This document shows positions 2,462 to 49,975 of a stretch of DNA of 64,000 bases, one piece after another. The position numbers were made by a program, and so were the translations under genes. The DNA is taken from the NCBI RefSeq assembly GCF_057098645.1, contig NZ_CM169472.1, one strand, 5' to 3'. How positions within the stretch are numbered: position 1 is the stretch's first letter; each line of letters starts with the position of its first letter. Under the pieces are notes generated by a model. It was not told where the DNA came from and made no database searches. It saw nothing but the letters and a program-made list of their open reading frames with translations.

Positions 2462-3664
2462 TTAACGCAGCCATTCAGGCAAATCGTTTAATCCCATCGC
2501 CTGACGGATAAGTTGTGGCTTAACGCCAGGAAGCGTGTCGGCCAGTTTCAAACCAATATCACGCAGCAGTTTTTTCGCCGGATTGGTACCGGAAAACAGA
2601 TCGCGGAATCCCTGCATACCAGCCAGCATCAGCGCCGCGCTGTGCTTGCGGCTACGTTCATAGCGGCGCAGGTAAATGTACTGCCCGATGTCTTTACCCT
2701 GACGATGCAACCGTTTCAGTTCAGCAATCAGCTCTGCGGCGTCCATAAAGCCGAGATTAACGCCCTGCCCCGCCAGTGGGTGAATGGTATGCGCGGCGTC
2801 GCCCACCAGCGCCAGACGATGTGCGGCAAACTGGCGCGCATAACGCCCCGTCAGCGGGAACACCTGACGCTCGCTCTCAACCTTGCATAAGCCCAGGCGA
2901 TTATCAAAAGCGATATTTAACGCGCGATTAAATTCGTCTTCCCCTGCCTGCTGCATCCGCTGCGCTTCCTCTGGCGACAGCGACCAGACAATCGAGCAAA
3001 GATGCGGATCGCTAAGCGGTAAAAAGGCCAGAATGCCTTCGCCGTGGAAAACCTGCCGCGCCACCGCATCATGCGGTTCTTCCGTGCGTATGGTCGCTAC
3101 CAGCGCGTGATGCTGATAATCCCAGAAAGTCAGCGGAATATCGGCTTTGTTGCGCAACCAGGAATTAGCGCCGTCCGCGCCAATCACCAGACGCGCCGTT
3201 AACATACTGCCATCTTTCAGCGTCAGGAAGGTTTCGTTTTCTCCCCAGGCGACCTGCTGTAATTCTGCGGGGGCCAACAGAGTGATATCTGACGACTGCT
3301 GCGCTTTGTTCCACAGCGCGTAGTGAATCACTGAGTTTTCAACGATATGCCCAAGATGGCTATAGCCCATGCTTTGATCGTCAAACGAAATGTGACCAAA
3401 GCTGTCTTTGTCCCACACTTCCATACCGTGATAACAGCTGGCTCGGCGAGAGAGAATGTCCTGCCAGACGCCAAGACGGGTGAGTAATTTTTCGCTGGCG
3501 GCATTGATAGCCGAAACGCGCAGTTGTGGTGGTGCATCCGCCGCCAGAGGTTCCGGTACGCGCTGCTCCAGTACGGCAACGCGTAAGCCGCTACCCTGTA
3601 AGCCGCAGGCAACCGCCAGCCCCACCATGCCGCCGCCAACAATGGCTACATCAACACTTTGCAT
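2462..3664 (-). CDS. ubiI: 2-octaprenylphenol hydroxylase UbiI (VisC), FAD monooxygenase
   Basis: 400 aa; MQSVDVAIVGGGMVGLAVACGL Rossmann FAD motif. Confidence 0.93.
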   Translation of the reverse strand: MQSVDVAIVGGGMVGLAVACGLQGSGLRVAVLEQRVPEPLAADAPPQLRVSAINAASEKLLTRLGVWQDILSRRASCYHGMEVWDKDSFGHISFDDQSMGYSHLGHIVENSVIHYALWNKAQQSSDITLLAPAELQQVAWGENETFLTLKDGSMLTARLVIGADGANSWLRNKADIPLTFWDYQHHALVATIRTEEPHDAVARQVFHGEGILAFLPLSDPHLCSIVWSLSPEEAQRMQQAGEDEFNRALNIAFDNRLGLCKVESERQVFPLTGRYARQFAAHRLALVGDAAHTIHPLAGQGVNLGFMDAAELIAELKRLHRQGKDIGQYIYLRRYERSRKHSAALMLAGMQGFRDLFSGTNPAKKLLRDIGLKLADTLPGVKPQLIRQAMGLNDLPEWLR

Positions 3665-34266: not shown

Positions 34267-35655
34267 TCAGTGTTTATGTTCGGCGGTTAATTGATTAAAT
34301 AAAGTGTCGAGTTTTGGATCGCCAATATAGTTATTAATCAATATCAGTGGTTTATCCGTCACACGTTTCACGCGCCCTTCCAGACTGGCGTGAGTGACGA
34401 CAATATCCGCATCCGCAGGCACGTTTTCTATAGCGTAATGTTTAACCTCTATTGCCAGCCCGGCTTTTTCCAGACGTTTGCGGAAGGTGGTCGCGCCCAT
34501 CGCACTCGATCCCATCCCCGCATCGCAAACAAAGGCAATACGCTTAACCCTGCTTAACGAGAATGCACCTTCTTGTTTCATCGCCTTAACCGCATTGGCT
34601 GACTGAGCAAACTCATCTTCGCTCTCCGTTTCCACCGTTTTTTCCATCTTCAGTATCAGCGAAGTAATAGCAAAGGACACCAGGGTACCTACCGTAACAC
34701 CGGCAATTGTCGCCAGGAACGAGCCTTTCGGCGTCAGTGCCAGGTAAGCAAAGATAGACCCCGGACTTGGGCCAGCCACCAGACCACCGTCCAGTAAGTT
34801 AAACATCCAGGTGCCAGACATACCGCCCGCAATCATGGCAATAATAGTCAGCGGCTTCATCAGCACATATGGGAAATACAGTTCGTGGATCCCACCGAGG
34901 AAGTGAATAATCATCGCCCCGGGCGCAGAACGTTTACTCATCCCTTTACCAAACAAGGTAAACGCCAGCAGCAGCCCCAGGCCCGGACCTGGGTTAGAGG
35001 CCACCATAAAGAAGATGGATTTACCGTTAACCGAAGCCTGTTGCATTCCCAGCGGATAATAGACGCCCTGATCGATCGCATTATTAAGGAAAAGCACTTT
35101 CGCCGGTTCATTGATGACTGACAGCAGAGGCAGATAACCCGCATGTACCAGCGCCTCAATACACTCTTTGACGAAAGTATTGGCAATTAACACCGCCGGG
35201 CCGATCACTTCAAAACCCAGCAGACAAAGGAGCATCCCCGCGATACCTAATGAGAAGTTATTGATAACCATCTCAAAACCGGCAGGTATGCGTTTTTCCA
35301 GTGCCTTATCAACATATTTTATGACCAGCCCACCGAGCGGCCCCATAATCATTGAGCCAAGGAACATCGGGATCTCTGCGCCGACGATCACACCAATAGT
35401 ACCTATTCCGCCCATGACCGCGCCGCGTTTACCGCCGACCAGATGACCACCGGTAGAACCAATCATCACGGGCAATAAATAGGTAATCATCGGGCCGACA
35501 ATTTTGGCGAAATGTTCGTTAGGCAGCCAACCGGTGGGAATAAATAACGCAGTAATAAAACCCCAGGCAATAAAAGCACCAATATTGGGGATGACCATTG
35601 CAGTCAAAAAGCCCCCAAAAGCCTGGACCTTTGCACGAGCAGACTTGTTTTCCAT
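34267..35655 (-). CDS. cmtA: cryptic mannitol-type PTS EIICB component
   Basis: 462 aa; multi-TM EIIC plus C-terminal EIIB (VCDAGMGSSAMG). Confidence 0.9.
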   Translation of the reverse strand: MENKSARAKVQAFGGFLTAMVIPNIGAFIAWGFITALFIPTGWLPNEHFAKIVGPMITYLLPVMIGSTGGHLVGGKRGAVMGGIGTIGVIVGAEIPMFLGSMIMGPLGGLVIKYVDKALEKRIPAGFEMVINNFSLGIAGMLLCLLGFEVIGPAVLIANTFVKECIEALVHAGYLPLLSVINEPAKVLFLNNAIDQGVYYPLGMQQASVNGKSIFFMVASNPGPGLGLLLAFTLFGKGMSKRSAPGAMIIHFLGGIHELYFPYVLMKPLTIIAMIAGGMSGTWMFNLLDGGLVAGPSPGSIFAYLALTPKGSFLATIAGVTVGTLVSFAITSLILKMEKTVETESEDEFAQSANAVKAMKQEGAFSLSRVKRIAFVCDAGMGSSAMGATTFRKRLEKAGLAIEVKHYAIENVPADADIVVTHASLEGRVKRVTDKPLILINNYIGDPKLDTLFNQLTAEHKH

Positions 35656-35682: not shown

Positions 35683-36126
35683 TTATCCGCGGCTGATAAT
35701 GTCCGCTAATTGTTTTTCTGATGATGCTGTTAAGAGTTGTTCGAGTATTTCTTCTTCGCACAGTAATTCACTTAACGCCTGAATAGCGCCAATGTGCGAA
35801 TCGGCATCGGCAGCAGAGAGTCCGATGAGTAATTTAATTGGTTCGTCATTCCCCGGAAAATAAACACCTTGTTCAAGTAATGTCAAAGACATCCCGGTTT
35901 TAAGCGCCCCACATTCCGGTCGCGCATGAGGCATTGCCACGCCTGGTGCGAGAATATAATAAGGGCCATTGTTAATGGTGGAATCTTTAATTGCCTGAAT
36001 GTAATTCTCGCTGATGTTGTTTTTATCCAGCAATGATACCATCGAGAAATCGATAGCTTCCTGCCAATCTTTTGCTGAATGTATAACTGAGATTGATGAT
36101 TCTGGAAAATAATCACTAAGCCGCAT
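35683..36126 (-). CDS. cmtB: cryptic mannitol-type PTS EIIA component
   Basis: 147 aa; MRLSDYFPESSISVIHSAKDWQEAIDFSMVSLL. Confidence 0.9.
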   Translation of the reverse strand: MRLSDYFPESSISVIHSAKDWQEAIDFSMVSLLDKNNISENYIQAIKDSTINNGPYYILAPGVAMPHARPECGALKTGMSLTLLEQGVYFPGNDEPIKLLIGLSAADADSHIGAIQALSELLCEEEILEQLLTASSEKQLADIISRG

Positions 36127-36550
36127 AAATTATCCTTATTTTTAGGGTACCGTCCGGCGGTAAAAATAAAATACTCGTGCGGTTTAATGAAAGCAATTGG
36201 GTACGCGAGAAGAAAAACCCCATAAACCAAAATAATAAAACCTTAAATAACAACAATATGAAATTGATATTTTTAAAGTCAACTTTGTATTTGTTATGTT
36301 TATCACAAAATCAACATTTTGTTTGTTATTGTATTTGTGATGCATATCTCTATTTATTTATTGAATGTTCGAAAACATACTTTTCTAATACAATGTTTTT
36401 TCGCTATACCCCTTTATAGATTCTGAATTCTCACCTGTCGGCTGTTTTCTCCTCATCTCATGTGACATATTCCCACACTTTACTCAAGGAAGATTGTCAT
36501 GAAAGCACTGAACCGCCCCGGGTTTCCTGGAGAGTATTTTATCTGTGAAC

Positions 36551-37438
36551 TCAGGCTGCCAGATCATTATTTCCGATGGAAGCATAATAAGCTTTTTCTG
36601 CTTCTGCCGGAGGAATATGGCCCAGCCTTTCCAGCAATCGTCGATTGTTATACCAGTCCACCCACGTGAGTGTGGCCAGTTCCACTTCTGCACGGTTTTT
36701 CCAGCTCTTACGGTGTATTACCTCCGCTTTGTAAAGACCATTGATGCTCTCCGCCATCGCGTTGTCATACGAGTCGCCAGTACTCCCTGTTGATGCCAGT
36801 AATCCGGCTTCCTTAAGCCGCTGCGTGTAGGCCAGCGATACATACTGAGAACCTTTATCACTGTGATGGATTGTGCCGGACGGCCGACGGGCCCACAACG
36901 CCTGCTCCAGTGCATCCAGCACGAATGTTGTTTCCATGGATGATGAGACCTGCCATCCCACGATGTATCCGGCGAACACATCAATGATGAACGCCACATA
37001 AACGAAGCCCCGCCATGTGCTGACGTAAGTAAAATCAGCCACCCACAGCTGGTCAGGTCGTTCTGCCACGAACTGACGGTTTACGCGGTCGCCTGCGGCA
37101 ACGGCTTTCCGGCTGATGGTCGTACGGACCTTTTTACCCCGGAGAACACCGGCAAGTCCCATAACCGCCATGAGACGTGCCACAGTGCATCTGGCCACTC
37201 TGATACCTTCCCGTAACAACTGACGCCAGACTTTACGCACACCGTATACCTTGTGATTTTCATCGTATACGCGCTGTATCTCTCTCTTCAGCCAGTCATC
37301 GCGCTGAGCACGGGCACTGCGTTTATCAGGATGATGTCGCTGTTGCTGACAGTGGTAATACGTTGACGGGGCAATATGCAGTTCACTGCATACCGGTCCG
37401 ACCCCGTACTGCTCACGCAGCTTATCCAGCAGCGGCAT
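36551..37438 (-). CDS. IS629 transposase OrfB (DDE catalytic part; expressed as OrfAB via -1 frameshift at A-run)
   Basis: 295 aa; DDE-type integrase core; orfA stop and orfB ATG share one nucleotide (TAATG) next to AAAAAA slippery run. Confidence 0.9.
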   Translation of the reverse strand: MPLLDKLREQYGVGPVCSELHIAPSTYYHCQQQRHHPDKRSARAQRDDWLKREIQRVYDENHKVYGVRKVWRQLLREGIRVARCTVARLMAVMGLAGVLRGKKVRTTISRKAVAAGDRVNRQFVAERPDQLWVADFTYVSTWRGFVYVAFIIDVFAGYIVGWQVSSSMETTFVLDALEQALWARRPSGTIHHSDKGSQYVSLAYTQRLKEAGLLASTGSTGDSYDNAMAESINGLYKAEVIHRKSWKNRAEVELATLTWVDWYNNRRLLERLGHIPPAEAEKAYYASIGNNDLAA

Positions 37439-37764
37439 TATTTTTTCCAGAGGCGGTCGAACTCCGCCTTCGCAAAATAAGCGGAAGCCTGGCGAAGGAT
37501 ATCGTTACTGCGGCGCAGTTCACGATTTTCACGTTCCAGCTCTTTCAGACGCTGACGTTCAGCGGTGGTGAGTCCACCATCACCACTCCCGGTATCCCGC
37601 TCATGCTGGCGAACCCAGACACGCAGAGTCTCCGGCGTACAGCCAATCTTTGGGGCAATGGAACAAATTGCCGCCCACTGTGAGTCATATTCATCCTGAC
37701 TTTCCAGAACCATACGAATCGCCCGCTGACGGACTTCGGGGGAAAAACGAGTATTTTTAGTCAT
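37438..37764 (-). CDS. IS629 transposase OrfA (HTH part)
   Basis: 108 aa; [57 protein letters not shown]. Confidence 0.9.
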
Positions 37765-38719
37765 CCTGTTTACCTCTTTCTCAGGGAGTTTAGTCTCCAG
37801 GATTTCCGGGGCGGTTCACACCTGTTTCATTAACCTCATTTCGCCCACAAAAATCTCTTGCTATCGCCATTGGCGTGCTTGCCGTGGTTGTGCTGCCATT
37901 TCTCTCGTATTACACCGTTAATGAAGGTGAACGCGGCATTTTGCTGCGCTACGGAAAAATCGTAAAAGTTGCCGAGCCGGGTCTGGGTTTTAAGATCCCG
38001 TTTATGGAAAGCGTGGAGAAAATTTCCACGCGTAATCAGGCTGTGGTCTATCAGGGATTACAGGCCTACAGCCGCGACCAGCAACCGGCACAAATGACAG
38101 TATCAGTCAGCTTCCACATTAAACCTTCAGAAGCAGGCGCGGTTTATACCACCTACAACACCATTGAAGCATTAAAAGATCGTCTGATTGTCCGTCAGTT
38201 GCCAACTCAACTGGAGAACGTTTTCGGCCAATATACCGCCATCAGCGCTGTACAGGATCGTACAAAACTGGTTCAGGATCTGCAAAATGCCATGCGCAAA
38301 GCCGTTGTTGGGCCAGTGGTAATTGACGGGGTCCAGATTGAAAATATTGATTTTTCTGACGCTTATGAAAAGTCGATTGAAGACCGAATGAAAGCAGAAG
38401 TCGCCATTGCCACGCGTAAGCAAAATCTGGAAACAGAGAAAATCCAGGCGCAAATAGCGGTAACTCAGGCCCAGGCAGAAGCAGACAGTAAACTGGCGGC
38501 AGCCAAAGCAGAAGCGGAAACTATTCGCGTAAGAGGCGCGGCAGAGGCTGAAACTATTCGTTTAAAAAGTGCGGCTGAAGCAGAAGCAATCCGCCTGCGC
38601 GGTGAAGCTCTGCGGGATAATCCCGGACTTGTAGCCCTCACCACTGCCGAACGTTGGGACGGTAAACTGCCCGATACCATGATCCCCGGCAGCACAGTTC
38701 CGTTTATCTCTACTAAGTA

Positions 38720-38748
38720 AAAAAAGGGCCGCTTTCGCGGCCCTTGAG
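38720..38748 (+). terminator. rho-independent-like hairpin after SPFH gene (AAAAAGGGCCGCTTTCGCGGCCCTT)
   Basis: GC hairpin directly after stop codon; same 21-nt hairpin recurs at 38897-38925. Confidence 0.55.
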
Positions 38749-38756
38749 AGTGATGG

Positions 38757-38890
<134 letters not shown>

Positions 38891-38896
38891 TAATCT

Positions 38897-38925
38897 AAAG
38901 GGCCGCTTTCGCGGCCCTTCTCACA
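38897..38925 (-). terminator. tktA terminator hairpin (AAGGGCCGCTTTCGCGGCCCTT)
   Basis: hairpin immediately downstream of tktA stop; bidirectional. Confidence 0.6.
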
Positions 38926-38939
38926 AAACGTCTTACTGA

Positions 38940-48245: not shown

Positions 48246-48580
48246 CCGCACAATAACATCATTCTTCCTGATCACGTTTCACCGCAAATTATCATCACAA
48301 CTGAAACCGATTACACCAACCACAACAGACAAAGATTTGTAATATTTTCATATTATTATTCGGTTTTCACAGTTGTTACATTTCTTTTCAGTAAAGTCTT
48401 AATTGCAGATAACAGCGTTTAATCTATGATGATATAACTCAATTATTTTCATGCACTTAAATCATAACTAAGATAAATGTTAGTGTAAGCGATTACACTG
48501 ATGTGATTTGCTTCACATCTTTTTATGTCGTACTCACCTATCTTAATTCACAATAAAAAATAACCATATTGGAGGGCATC

Positions 48581-49975
48581 ATGCCTGACGCTAAAAAACA
48601 GGGGCGGTCAAACAAGGCAATGACGTTTTTCGTCTGCTTCCTTGCCGCTCTGGCGGGATTACTCTTTGGCCTGGATATCGGTGTAATTGCTGGCGCACTG
48701 CCGTTTATTGCAGATGAATTCCAGATTACTTCGCACACGCAAGAATGGGTCGTAAGCTCCATGATGTTCGGTGCGGCAGTCGGTGCGGTGGGCAGCGGCT
48801 GGCTCTCCTTTAAACTCGGACGCAAAAAGAGCCTGATGATCGGCGCAATTTTGTTTGTTGCCGGTTCGCTGTTCTCTGCGGCTGCGCCAAACGTTGAAGT
48901 ACTGATTCTTTCCCGCGTTCTGCTGGGGCTGGCGGTGGGTGTGGCCTCTTATACCGCACCACTGTACCTCTCTGAAATTGCGCCGGAAAAAATTCGCGGC
49001 AGTATGATCTCGATGTATCAGTTGATGATCACTATCGGGATCCTCGGTGCTTATCTTTCTGATACCGCCTTCAGCTACACCGGTGCATGGCGCTGGATGC
49101 TGGGTGTGATTATCATCCCGGCAATTTTGCTGCTGATTGGTGTCTTCTTCCTGCCAGACAGCCCACGTTGGTTTGCCGCCAAACGCCGTTTTGTTGATGC
49201 CGAACGCGTGCTGCTACGCCTGCGTGACACCAGCGCGGAAGCGAAACGCGAACTGGATGAAATCCGTGAAAGTTTGCAGGTTAAACAGAGTGGCTGGGCG
49301 CTGTTTAAAGAGAATAGCAACTTCCGCCGCGCGGTGTTCCTTGGCGTACTGTTACAGGTAATGCAGCAATTCACCGGGATGAACGTCATCATGTATTACG
49401 CGCCGAAAATCTTCGAACTGGCGGGTTATACCAACACTACCGAGCAAATGTGGGGGACAGTGATTGTCGGCCTGACCAACGTACTTGCCACCTTTATCGC
49501 AATCGGCCTTGTTGACCGCTGGGGACGTAAACCAACGCTAACGCTGGGCTTCCTGGTGATGGCTGCTGGTATGGGCGTACTCGGTACAATGATGCATATC
49601 GGTATCCACTCTCCGTCGGCGCAGTATTTCGCCATCGCCATGCTGCTGATGTTTATTGTCGGTTTTGCCATGAGTGCCGGTCCGCTGATTTGGGTACTGT
49701 GCTCCGAAATTCAGCCGCTGAAAGGCCGCGATTTTGGCATCACCTGCTCCACCGCCACCAACTGGATTGCCAACATGATCGTTGGCGCAACGTTCCTGAC
49801 CATGCTCAACACGCTGGGTAACGCCAACACCTTCTGGGTGTACGCGGCTCTGAACGTACTGTTTATCCTGCTGACATTGTGGCTGGTACCGGAAACCAAA
49901 CACGTTTCGCTGGAACATATTGAACGTAATCTGATGAAAGGTCGTAAACTGCGCGAAATCGGCGCTCACGATTAA
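48581..49975 (+). CDS. galP: galactose:H+ symporter (MFS sugar porter)
   Basis: ORF 48569..49975 trimmed to [43 protein letters not shown] (464 aa). Confidence 0.97.

Follow-up and report, generated by a model that had tools for sequence, protein, structure and literature searches.

The AT-rich spacer between cmtB and an SPFH gene of Escherichia coli: an ordinary cmtBA control region and an ancestral, SPFH-linked allele of a known CRP target

Does the AT-rich spacer between cmtB and an SPFH gene of Escherichia coli represent H-NS-silenced promoter DNA in front of a cryptic operon, or is it a control region of a more ordinary kind? A preliminary description of the window, i.e., of the whole 64-kb stretch of DNA analyzed here, had placed the spacer at positions 36127 to 36498. 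These coordinates proved to be exact and span the gap between the start of cmtB and the ATG of the SPFH gene (Table 1). The window belongs to E. coli, and its positions 36000 to 36508 are 100% identical to the O145 strain RM9872. For that strain, RefSeq lets a "prohibitin family protein" of 302 aa, which contains a Pfam Band_7/SPFH domain, begin at the ATG at 36499. The feature is real, correctly placed, and ordinary in kind; it is an AT-rich cmtBA control region that is already known as a CRP target and is found here as the ancestral allele linked to the SPFH gene. With a probability of roughly 70%, we read it as an ancestral Escherichia control region common to the leftward cmtBA(-yggP...) PTS operon and the rightward SPFH gene, in which cmtB would be activated by CRP.

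Table 1. Coordinates of the features in and around the cmtB-SPFH spacer (positions of the window; ".", no strand assigned)
Feature	Position	Strand	Remarks
cmtA	34267-35655	minus	
cmtB, PTS EIIA	35683-36126	minus	Pfam PTS_EIIA_2
AT-rich cmtB-SPFH spacer	36127-36498	.	372 nt; GC 30.9%
cmtB-proximal segment, probable 5' leader	36127-36199	minus	SD TAAGGA (36138 to 36133)
Spurious ORF	36177-36419	plus	80 aa; GTG start
AT-rich core	36200-36392 (right end ~36392)	.	GC 24%; hypervariable but indel-free; homolog of the region upstream of cmtB in K-12
Conserved island TAACAA	36248-36253	.	site of the crossover in the mosaic allele of O157:H7 TR01
Candidate -10 hexamer CATATT of the cmtB promoter	36255-36260	minus	weak; CATGTT in most alleles; predicted
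Candidate -35 hexamer TTGACT	36277-36282	minus	invariant in 11/11 SPFH-type alleles; TTGACA in K-12 type
CRP-box candidate 1, TGTTATGTTTATCACA	36292-36307	.	15.4 bits; rank 3 of 63,985 positions; in register with K-12-type CGTGATGCATATTACA
CRP-box candidate 2, TGTGATGCATATCTCT	36336-36351	.	12.3 bits; rank 4 of 63,985 positions; in register with K-12-type TGTGATCTACAACACG
Conserved island TATTGAATGTTCGAAAAC	36359-36376	.	in all Escherichia alleles; recognizable in K-12 type as TATTGCTTGTCCGCAAAC
SPFH-specific 5' region	36393-36498	plus	absent from K-12-type genomes
Conserved block CTTTATAGATTCTGAATT	36412-36429		in the SPFH-specific 5' region
Extended -10-like TGACATATT	36463-36471		in the SPFH-specific 5' region; putative promoter element
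SD AAGGAAG	36486-36492		in the SPFH-specific 5' region; conserved
First 10 nt of the SPFH (prohibitin-family) gene	36499-36508	plus	severed by the insertion sequence
IS629/IS1203-like IS3-family element	36509-37818	minus	1,310 bp; orfA 37438-37764, orfB 36551-37438, frameshift pseudoknot
Rest of the SPFH gene (Band_7 domain)	37819-38720	plus	

The GC profile bears out that the spacer is strongly AT-rich, and it is in fact the most AT-rich stretch of the window. Its GC content of 30.9%, compared with 51.6% for the window as a whole, is matched by only 0.19% of all 372-nt windows of the 64 kb, all of which overlap the spacer, and the 200-nt GC minimum of the 64 kb (22%, beginning at 36222) lies inside it. 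An AT content far above the average across at least 200 bp, as found here (GC of 22 to 31% versus 51.6%), is the composition expected of H-NS regions. The "long A/T runs" reported previously are present as four A/T-only runs of 11 to 13 nt, but the wording was an overstatement, since the longest homopolymer is T6. The direct repeats that had been named do exist and exceed chance in dinucleotide shuffles: TTGTTAT occurs at 36291 and 36323, a duplication found in 1.1% of the shuffles, with ATAACAA at 36247 in addition, and copies of ATTTGT are located at 36289 and 36333. Both motifs lie within a direct repeat with 17 identical positions out of 20 (36285 to 36304 and 36329 to 36348, 44 nt apart), and a repeat of this type was reached by 0.6% of the dinucleotide shuffles.

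The two copies of this repeat, ATTTGTTATGTTTATCACA and ATTTGTGATGCATATCTCT, resemble the CRP consensus TGTGA-N6-TCACA. Candidate sites were scored with a symmetric weight matrix derived from 106 CRP ChIP-seq sites (Table 1 of Haycocks et al., PMC4287617), with the cmtB site left out; the interquartile range of the training sites is 10.7 to 15.0 bits. Sites matching the consensus of the CRP regulon were detected in the spacer, and the TTGTTAT/ATTTGT repeats turned out to be the left halves of two CRP-box candidates that are 44 bp apart. What had been taken for repeats of the H-NS type is thus better described as a pair of strong CRP-box candidates (15.4 and 12.3 bits), which are in register with the boxes of the K-12-type allele. 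In 5,000 dinucleotide shuffles of the spacer, a site of at least 15.4 bits was obtained in a fraction of 0.0006, and two sites of at least 12.25 bits were never obtained (0/5,000). Rank 1 in the window is held by the known CRP site of galP (48502) and rank 2 by a site in the gcvT-ubiI spacer; both gcvT and ubiI are on the CRP SELEX target list. As a side observation, AT-rich troughs and CRP-regulated promoters of the window fall together, the other two troughs being the gcvT-ubiI(visC) spacer (2126 to 2460), with a 16.0-bit CRP-box candidate at 2425 to 2440, and the region upstream of galP (48271 to 48582), with the known CRP site at 48502 to 48517.

In the K-12-type allele, the boxes are likewise 44 bp apart and score 13.2 bits (CGTGATGCATATTACA) and 13.9 bits (TGTGATCTACAACACG). 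In ETEC H10407, TGTGATCTACAACACG is the site under the ChIP-seq peak of CRP that was attributed to cmtB (Haycocks et al. 2015, PMC4287617), and it is also a genomic-SELEX CRP site between cmtBA-yggPFDC and tktA of K-12, where a crp mutant showed reduced cmtB promoter activity in a promoter fusion (Shimada et al. 2011, PMC3105977). Expression of cmtB in E. coli O157:H7 EDL933, which carries a K-12-type allele, has been published to be 4- to 8-fold higher in bovine gut contents than in glucose medium. Since the K-12-type allele is occupied by CRP and cmtB is induced, "cryptic" is not the same as silent; read in the sense of silent, the term is contradicted for K-12-type alleles by the published CRP-dependent promoter activity and the induction in gut contents. 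The published occupancy and dependence concern an allele whose core is ~51% identical to the present one, on which we infer a corresponding action of CRP. Box 2 is retained in all seven E. coli alleles that were scored (at least 11.1 bits), its right half being weak (TCTCT), and box 1 is degraded in the B2/ST131 alleles (4.3 bits). The half-sites persist across 11 SPFH-type alleles and the central 6 nt vary, a pattern that was also found in the cryptic Escherichia clade. The corresponding boxes are TGTGATAATGAACACA and TGTGATTTGCATCACT in E. albertii and TGTTATATACATCACA and TGTGATAAATATCACT in E. whittamii.

The spacer is tripartite and consists of 73 nt proximal to cmtB, the AT-rich core, and ~90 to 105 nt of the SPFH gene. 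The cmtB-proximal segment is present across all E. coli, is nearly identical in K-12-type and SPFH-type genomes, and includes a small palindrome, TACCGTCCGGCGGTA; in the mechanism proposed here it would be the cmtB leader with its ribosome-binding site. Just upstream of this site (36136 to 36140), one copy of a tandem TTATT is missing in the O145 allele and in E. albertii (5-nt deletion), and both copies are present in the other alleles. Because of this deletion, the distance between the center of box 1 and the ATG of cmtB, which is 178.5 bp in both allele types, amounts to 173.5 bp in the present O145 allele. A BLAST comparison with a K-12-type genome produced a match that ends at 36199 and restarts at the tktA stop codon, as if everything beyond 36199 were an insertion relative to K-12. 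This interpretation was overturned by a MAFFT alignment, in which the cmtB-tktA spacer of K-12 aligns gaplessly up to ~36392 with an identity of ~51% and with the shared islands in register. The homology of the K-12 spacer up to ~36392 reduces the supposed foreign islet to the SPFH gene and ~105 nt of its 5' region. The final ~90 nt of the spacer align with the region upstream of the SPFH gene in Pseudocitrobacter, where the gene adjoins tktA and the cmt operon is absent. Three further candidates were rejected, i.e., Cra or NagC/Mlc sites at the island 36359 to 36376, which were unconvincing when inspected by eye, a conserved hairpin at the same island, where the palindromes of different alleles are in different registers, and a sigma-E promoter for the conserved TCTGAA block, for which no GGAACTT-like -35 was seen by eye.

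The cmtB promoter region of K-12 and ETEC H10407 (PMC3105977, PMC4287617) represents the orthologous locus with the same cmtB leader and a collinear, gapless core. Common to both are the two CRP boxes 44 bp apart, their distance to the cmtB ATG (allowing for the TTATT deletion), the hexamer TTGAC(T/A), and the island TATTG...CG.AAAC. The K-12-type core is AT-rich, too (30% GC compared with 24% here, at ~51% identity), but neither the SPFH gene nor its 5' region is present in the K-12 type, which continues directly into the tktA terminator. In the SPFH-tktA spacer of the window (38721 to 38939), two REP-like units were observed, with matches to Rfam ES036/CssrF (38791 to 38833, minus strand) and, partially, to naRNA4 (38837 to 38873); the terminator hairpin AAGGGCCGCTTTCGCGGCCCTT recurs on either side of them as a perfect direct repeat of 23 nt (38723 to 38745 and 38897 to 38919).

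The sole promoter match of a consensus scan is located on the minus strand and consists of TTGACT (36282 to 36277) and CATATT (36260 to 36255), which are separated by 16 nt. Among the minus-strand promoter candidates, the one with TTGACT ranks first in the window and in 6 of the 10 other alleles, and it is among the top four in all alleles except that of E. albertii; the -10 candidates are poor and variable between alleles. From the predicted cmtB start at ~36248, the box centers would be located at about -51 (-51.5) and -95 (-95.5), which is near but off the class I positions, the canonical CRP positions being -41.5, -61.5, -71.5, -82.5, and -92.5. The Cappable-seq supplements contain no entry for cmtB. 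A class II CRP promoter at box 1 was rejected, because no conserved -10 is found 30 to 35 bp downstream of the box. According to the proposed mechanism, the core from 36200 to ~36392 would belong to cmtB, with the -35-like TTGACT, the weak -10, and the two CRP boxes upstream, whose distance of 44 bp would correspond to about four helical turns. In the absence of preferred sugars, cAMP-CRP would bind both boxes and activate the intrinsically weak cmtB promoter. The remaining part (~36393 to 36498) would provide the SPFH gene with a short promoter and leader of its own; its core promoter may be the CTTTATAGATTCTGAATT or the TGACATATT block, both of which are candidates.

The preliminary description had interpreted the spacer as the divergent promoter region of the cmt operon and the SPFH gene. 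A genuine control region that is AT-rich, noncoding, and divergent does exist here, but an insertion sequence interrupts the SPFH gene of the window, and two intact divergent genes are instead found in RM9872 and in the ~1,750 of 5,426 complete genomes in which the spacer is joined to the SPFH start. The insertion was located by alignment to RM9872 and is bordered by a 3-bp duplication (CAC at 36506 to 36508 and 37819 to 37821). The element ends in imperfect terminal inverted repeats (TGAACCGCCCCGG...) and harbors two overlapping transposase frames on the minus strand, which read toward the spacer and cmtB, as well as the frameshift pseudoknot of the IS3 family (Rfam ALIL, 120.9 bits). It is up to 98.7% identical to IS3-family copies in complete E. 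coli genomes, the ends of which match elements annotated as "IS3-like element IS1203 family." The size of ~1.3 kb, the inverted repeats, the 3-bp duplication, and orfA/orfB with a -1 frameshift signal identify it as a member of the IS629-IS1203 group of the IS3 family. The same insertion site or junction was found in none of the 5,426 complete RefSeq genomes of E. coli. A chimeric ORF of 56 aa (36499 to 36669) runs from the SPFH start into the element. The SPFH gene of the window, split 10 nt past its ATG, is therefore a pseudogene. Its rightward promoter can drive only a stub, and only the cmtB half of the control region is still meaningful here.

The order cmtA-cmtB, AT-rich spacer (29 to 31% GC), SPFH gene, and tktA recurs in E. 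albertii, E. whittamii, and the cryptic Escherichia clade, and the SPFH-type arrangement is present in ~1,750 of 5,426 complete E. coli genomes (about one third). The occurrence of the same order with an AT-rich spacer in three other Escherichia lineages indicates that the arrangement is ancestral to the genus and that the DNA was not recently imported. Judging from these comparisons, K-12-like genomes have lost the SPFH gene, and their arrangement is the derived one.

The alleles of the core have strongly diverged. The present one is 72% identical to the ST131 allele, the flanking genes of which are 96 to 98.5% identical, and ~51% identical to the K-12 type, and the identity to E. albertii is 50 to 58%, depending on the alignment. 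In complete genomes, the core found matches of at least 99% identity in 184 cases, of 95 to 99% in 124, of 90 to 95% in 1,037, of 80 to 90% in 12, and of 60 to 80% in 471, the K-12-type core being too diverged for detection with blastn. All alleles align gaplessly without any indel over ~265 bp, and the GC content of the core is 24 to 30% in all nine alleles. Since AT-richness was kept despite the sequence turnover and at a fixed length, constraints appear to act on the spacing and the physical properties of the DNA; binding of a nucleoid protein such as H-NS would fit such constraints. O157:H7 strain TR01 harbors a mosaic, which is identical to the O145-type core up to 36253 in the TAACAA island and of the K-12 type further on, indicating that the diverged alleles recombine in register. 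In the same strain (2911 to 3245, corresponding to 36115 to 36400 of the window), the SPFH gene is absent and the junction on the tktA side is unlike that of K-12. From the alignments, these sequences are most plainly described as old, recombining alleles of one regulatory module with a fixed geometry. At the protein level, CmtB diverges faster between Escherichia species (86 to 95% identity) than CmtA (97 to 99%) or TktA (99%).

Comparison with other known systems helps to place this module. The mtlADR region of E. coli likewise comprises a mannitol-family PTS operon, a paralog of cmt, that is preceded by an AT-rich region with tandem CRP boxes. Five CRP sites were reportedly described for the mtl control region by Ramseier and Saier in 1995. 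The mtl operon has a dedicated repressor, MtlR, and we know of no specific regulator for cmt. Two CRP sites of mtlA are listed in Table 1 of PMC4287617. The cmtB alleles also invite a comparison with regulatory switching, as deeply diverged promoter alleles, one of them a mosaic (O157:H7 TR01), are located between well-conserved genes. Such switching of regulatory regions between E. coli strains by transfer of noncoding DNA is said to have been described by Oren et al. in 2014. Unlike in regulatory switching, the cmtB alleles are collinear, of equal length, and have retained the same sites, and they look like the outcome of old allelic divergence and recombination rather than of a replacement by unrelated DNA.

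Among the alternative explanations, the one that survives best is that the spacer is chiefly H-NS-silenced promoter DNA, on which H-NS filaments along the AT-rich tract keep the cmt operon, and with it the SPFH gene, switched off; we rate this somewhat below even odds. H-NS prefers AT-rich tracts of such a kind, and the spacer not only is the lowest-GC tract of the window (22 to 31%) but also preserved 24 to 30% GC in all alleles despite a sequence turnover of ~50%, although with ~200 to 300 bp the tract is short. The typical context of horizontally acquired, lineage-specific DNA is missing, as the region is ancestral rather than foreign and its core has a homolog even in K-12. The cmt operon is traditionally called cryptic, and the -10 of cmtB is weak, which would suit a silenced promoter, but CRP binds the K-12-type allele in vivo (ETEC) and cmtB is induced 4- to 8-fold, so this promoter is not permanently shut. 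The high-affinity motif of Lang (TCGATAAATT), which is not obligatory for H-NS binding, is not enriched in the spacer, where a single 8/10 match was found (36355 to 36364); the whole window contains 70 such matches compared with 62 ± 8 expected ones. No relevant report of cmtA or cmtB in connection with H-NS was retrieved in a full-text literature search. Binding of H-NS to the spacer is plausible from its composition, and it would not compete with the preferred reading of a CRP-activated control region. The bgl operon, a cryptic PTS operon that is activated by insertion sequences, is both CRP dependent and silenced by H-NS. Silencing by H-NS and activation by CRP can thus coexist, as they do at bgl, and the two explanations are complementary rather than exclusive. 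The cmt locus resembles bgl in that a PTS operon called cryptic is preceded by AT-rich DNA with one or more CRP boxes, a weak promoter, and a nearby insertion sequence. It differs from bgl by the location of the insertion in a neighboring gene instead of the silencer and by the lack of a BglG-type antiterminator.

A more far-reaching version, which we regard as unlikely, would be that the spacer is a module with a fixed architecture and a free sequence, whose at least four diverged core alleles (~51 to 93% identical) might be maintained by balancing or diversifying selection on a switch formed by CRP and a nucleoid protein; the adjacent IS629 might then alter silencing as at bgl. It is likewise unlikely that the operon is dispensable, that the core preceding it is AT-rich DNA in decay without a function, and that the CRP-like words are by-products of its composition. 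The divergence of the core is indeed extreme (72% and ~51% identity) compared with the flanking genes (96 to 98.5%), and cmtB itself evolves faster than cmtA. The conserved islands are nevertheless kept in register in every allele and species, ~265 bp are free of indels, composition-matched shuffles fail to reproduce the scores of the CRP boxes, and for the K-12-type allele both the binding of CRP and the activity of the promoter are on record in the literature.

We consider it very unlikely that the IS629 insertion rewired the locus, either by breaking the silencing tract or by a read-through of transposase transcription toward cmtB that would raise the expression of cmtBA. The element lies 158 bp past CRP box 2 with its transposase genes directed at cmtB, and this insertion is absent from all 5,426 complete E. 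coli genomes, but the idea is purely an analogy to the activation of bgl by insertion sequences. The insertion is situated within the SPFH coding sequence, ~260 bp away from the predicted cmtB start, it left the spacer whole, and an outward promoter is not evident at the end of the element.

It is extremely improbable that the spacer encodes a structured small RNA or a small protein, be it the product of the 80-aa ORF or of an ORF on the minus strand. The ORFs of 80, 53, 46, and 35 aa that are open in the present allele and the indel-free alignment across alleles are outweighed by early stops or the loss of start codons in several alleles, nonconservative substitutions, and the lack of support from Pfam, Rfam, RefSeq annotation, and RNAalifold covariation. 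The ORF at 36177 to 36419 had been regarded as a composition artifact, and rightly so, as its codon 30 is a stop in three of seven E. coli alleles, its GTG reads GTA in the B2 alleles, and it matches no family. It is not the only ORF of the spacer, as had been stated, and others of at least 30 aa are located at 36184 to 36345 (minus strand), 36116 to 36256 (minus strand), and 36319 to 36426 (plus strand). The minus-strand ORFs are likewise broken in the comparison of alleles, and, altogether, stops or lost starts were found in three to four of seven alleles. Searches of the spacer ORFs against Pfam gave no match, and the spacer had no Rfam match at an E value of up to 1. The fold of the leader is no better than that of shuffled sequences (z = 0.04), and RNAalifold revealed no supporting covariation (covariation term of +1.11; compensatory change in 3 of 63 pairs). 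In RefSeq, no feature is annotated in the spacer, neither in the nine genomes that were inspected nor in any of the 24 matches listed. Between cmtB and the SPFH gene, the numbering of the RefSeq locus tags has a gap of one (RS18870 to RS18880 in RM9872; RS04805 to RS04795 in Ecol_244), which suggests a former gene prediction in the spacer that has since been removed.

Beyond a correct annotation, the spacer itself is of little significance. It exemplifies that AT-richness in combination with short repeats is no signature of H-NS when the repeats are the boxes of a transcription factor. The so-called cryptic cmt operon gains a concrete and testable control architecture, i.e., two candidate CRP boxes and a conserved -35, in about one third of E. 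coli genomes. In addition, the extreme divergence of its alleles at constant length represents a small, clean case of promoter evolution under spacing constraints.
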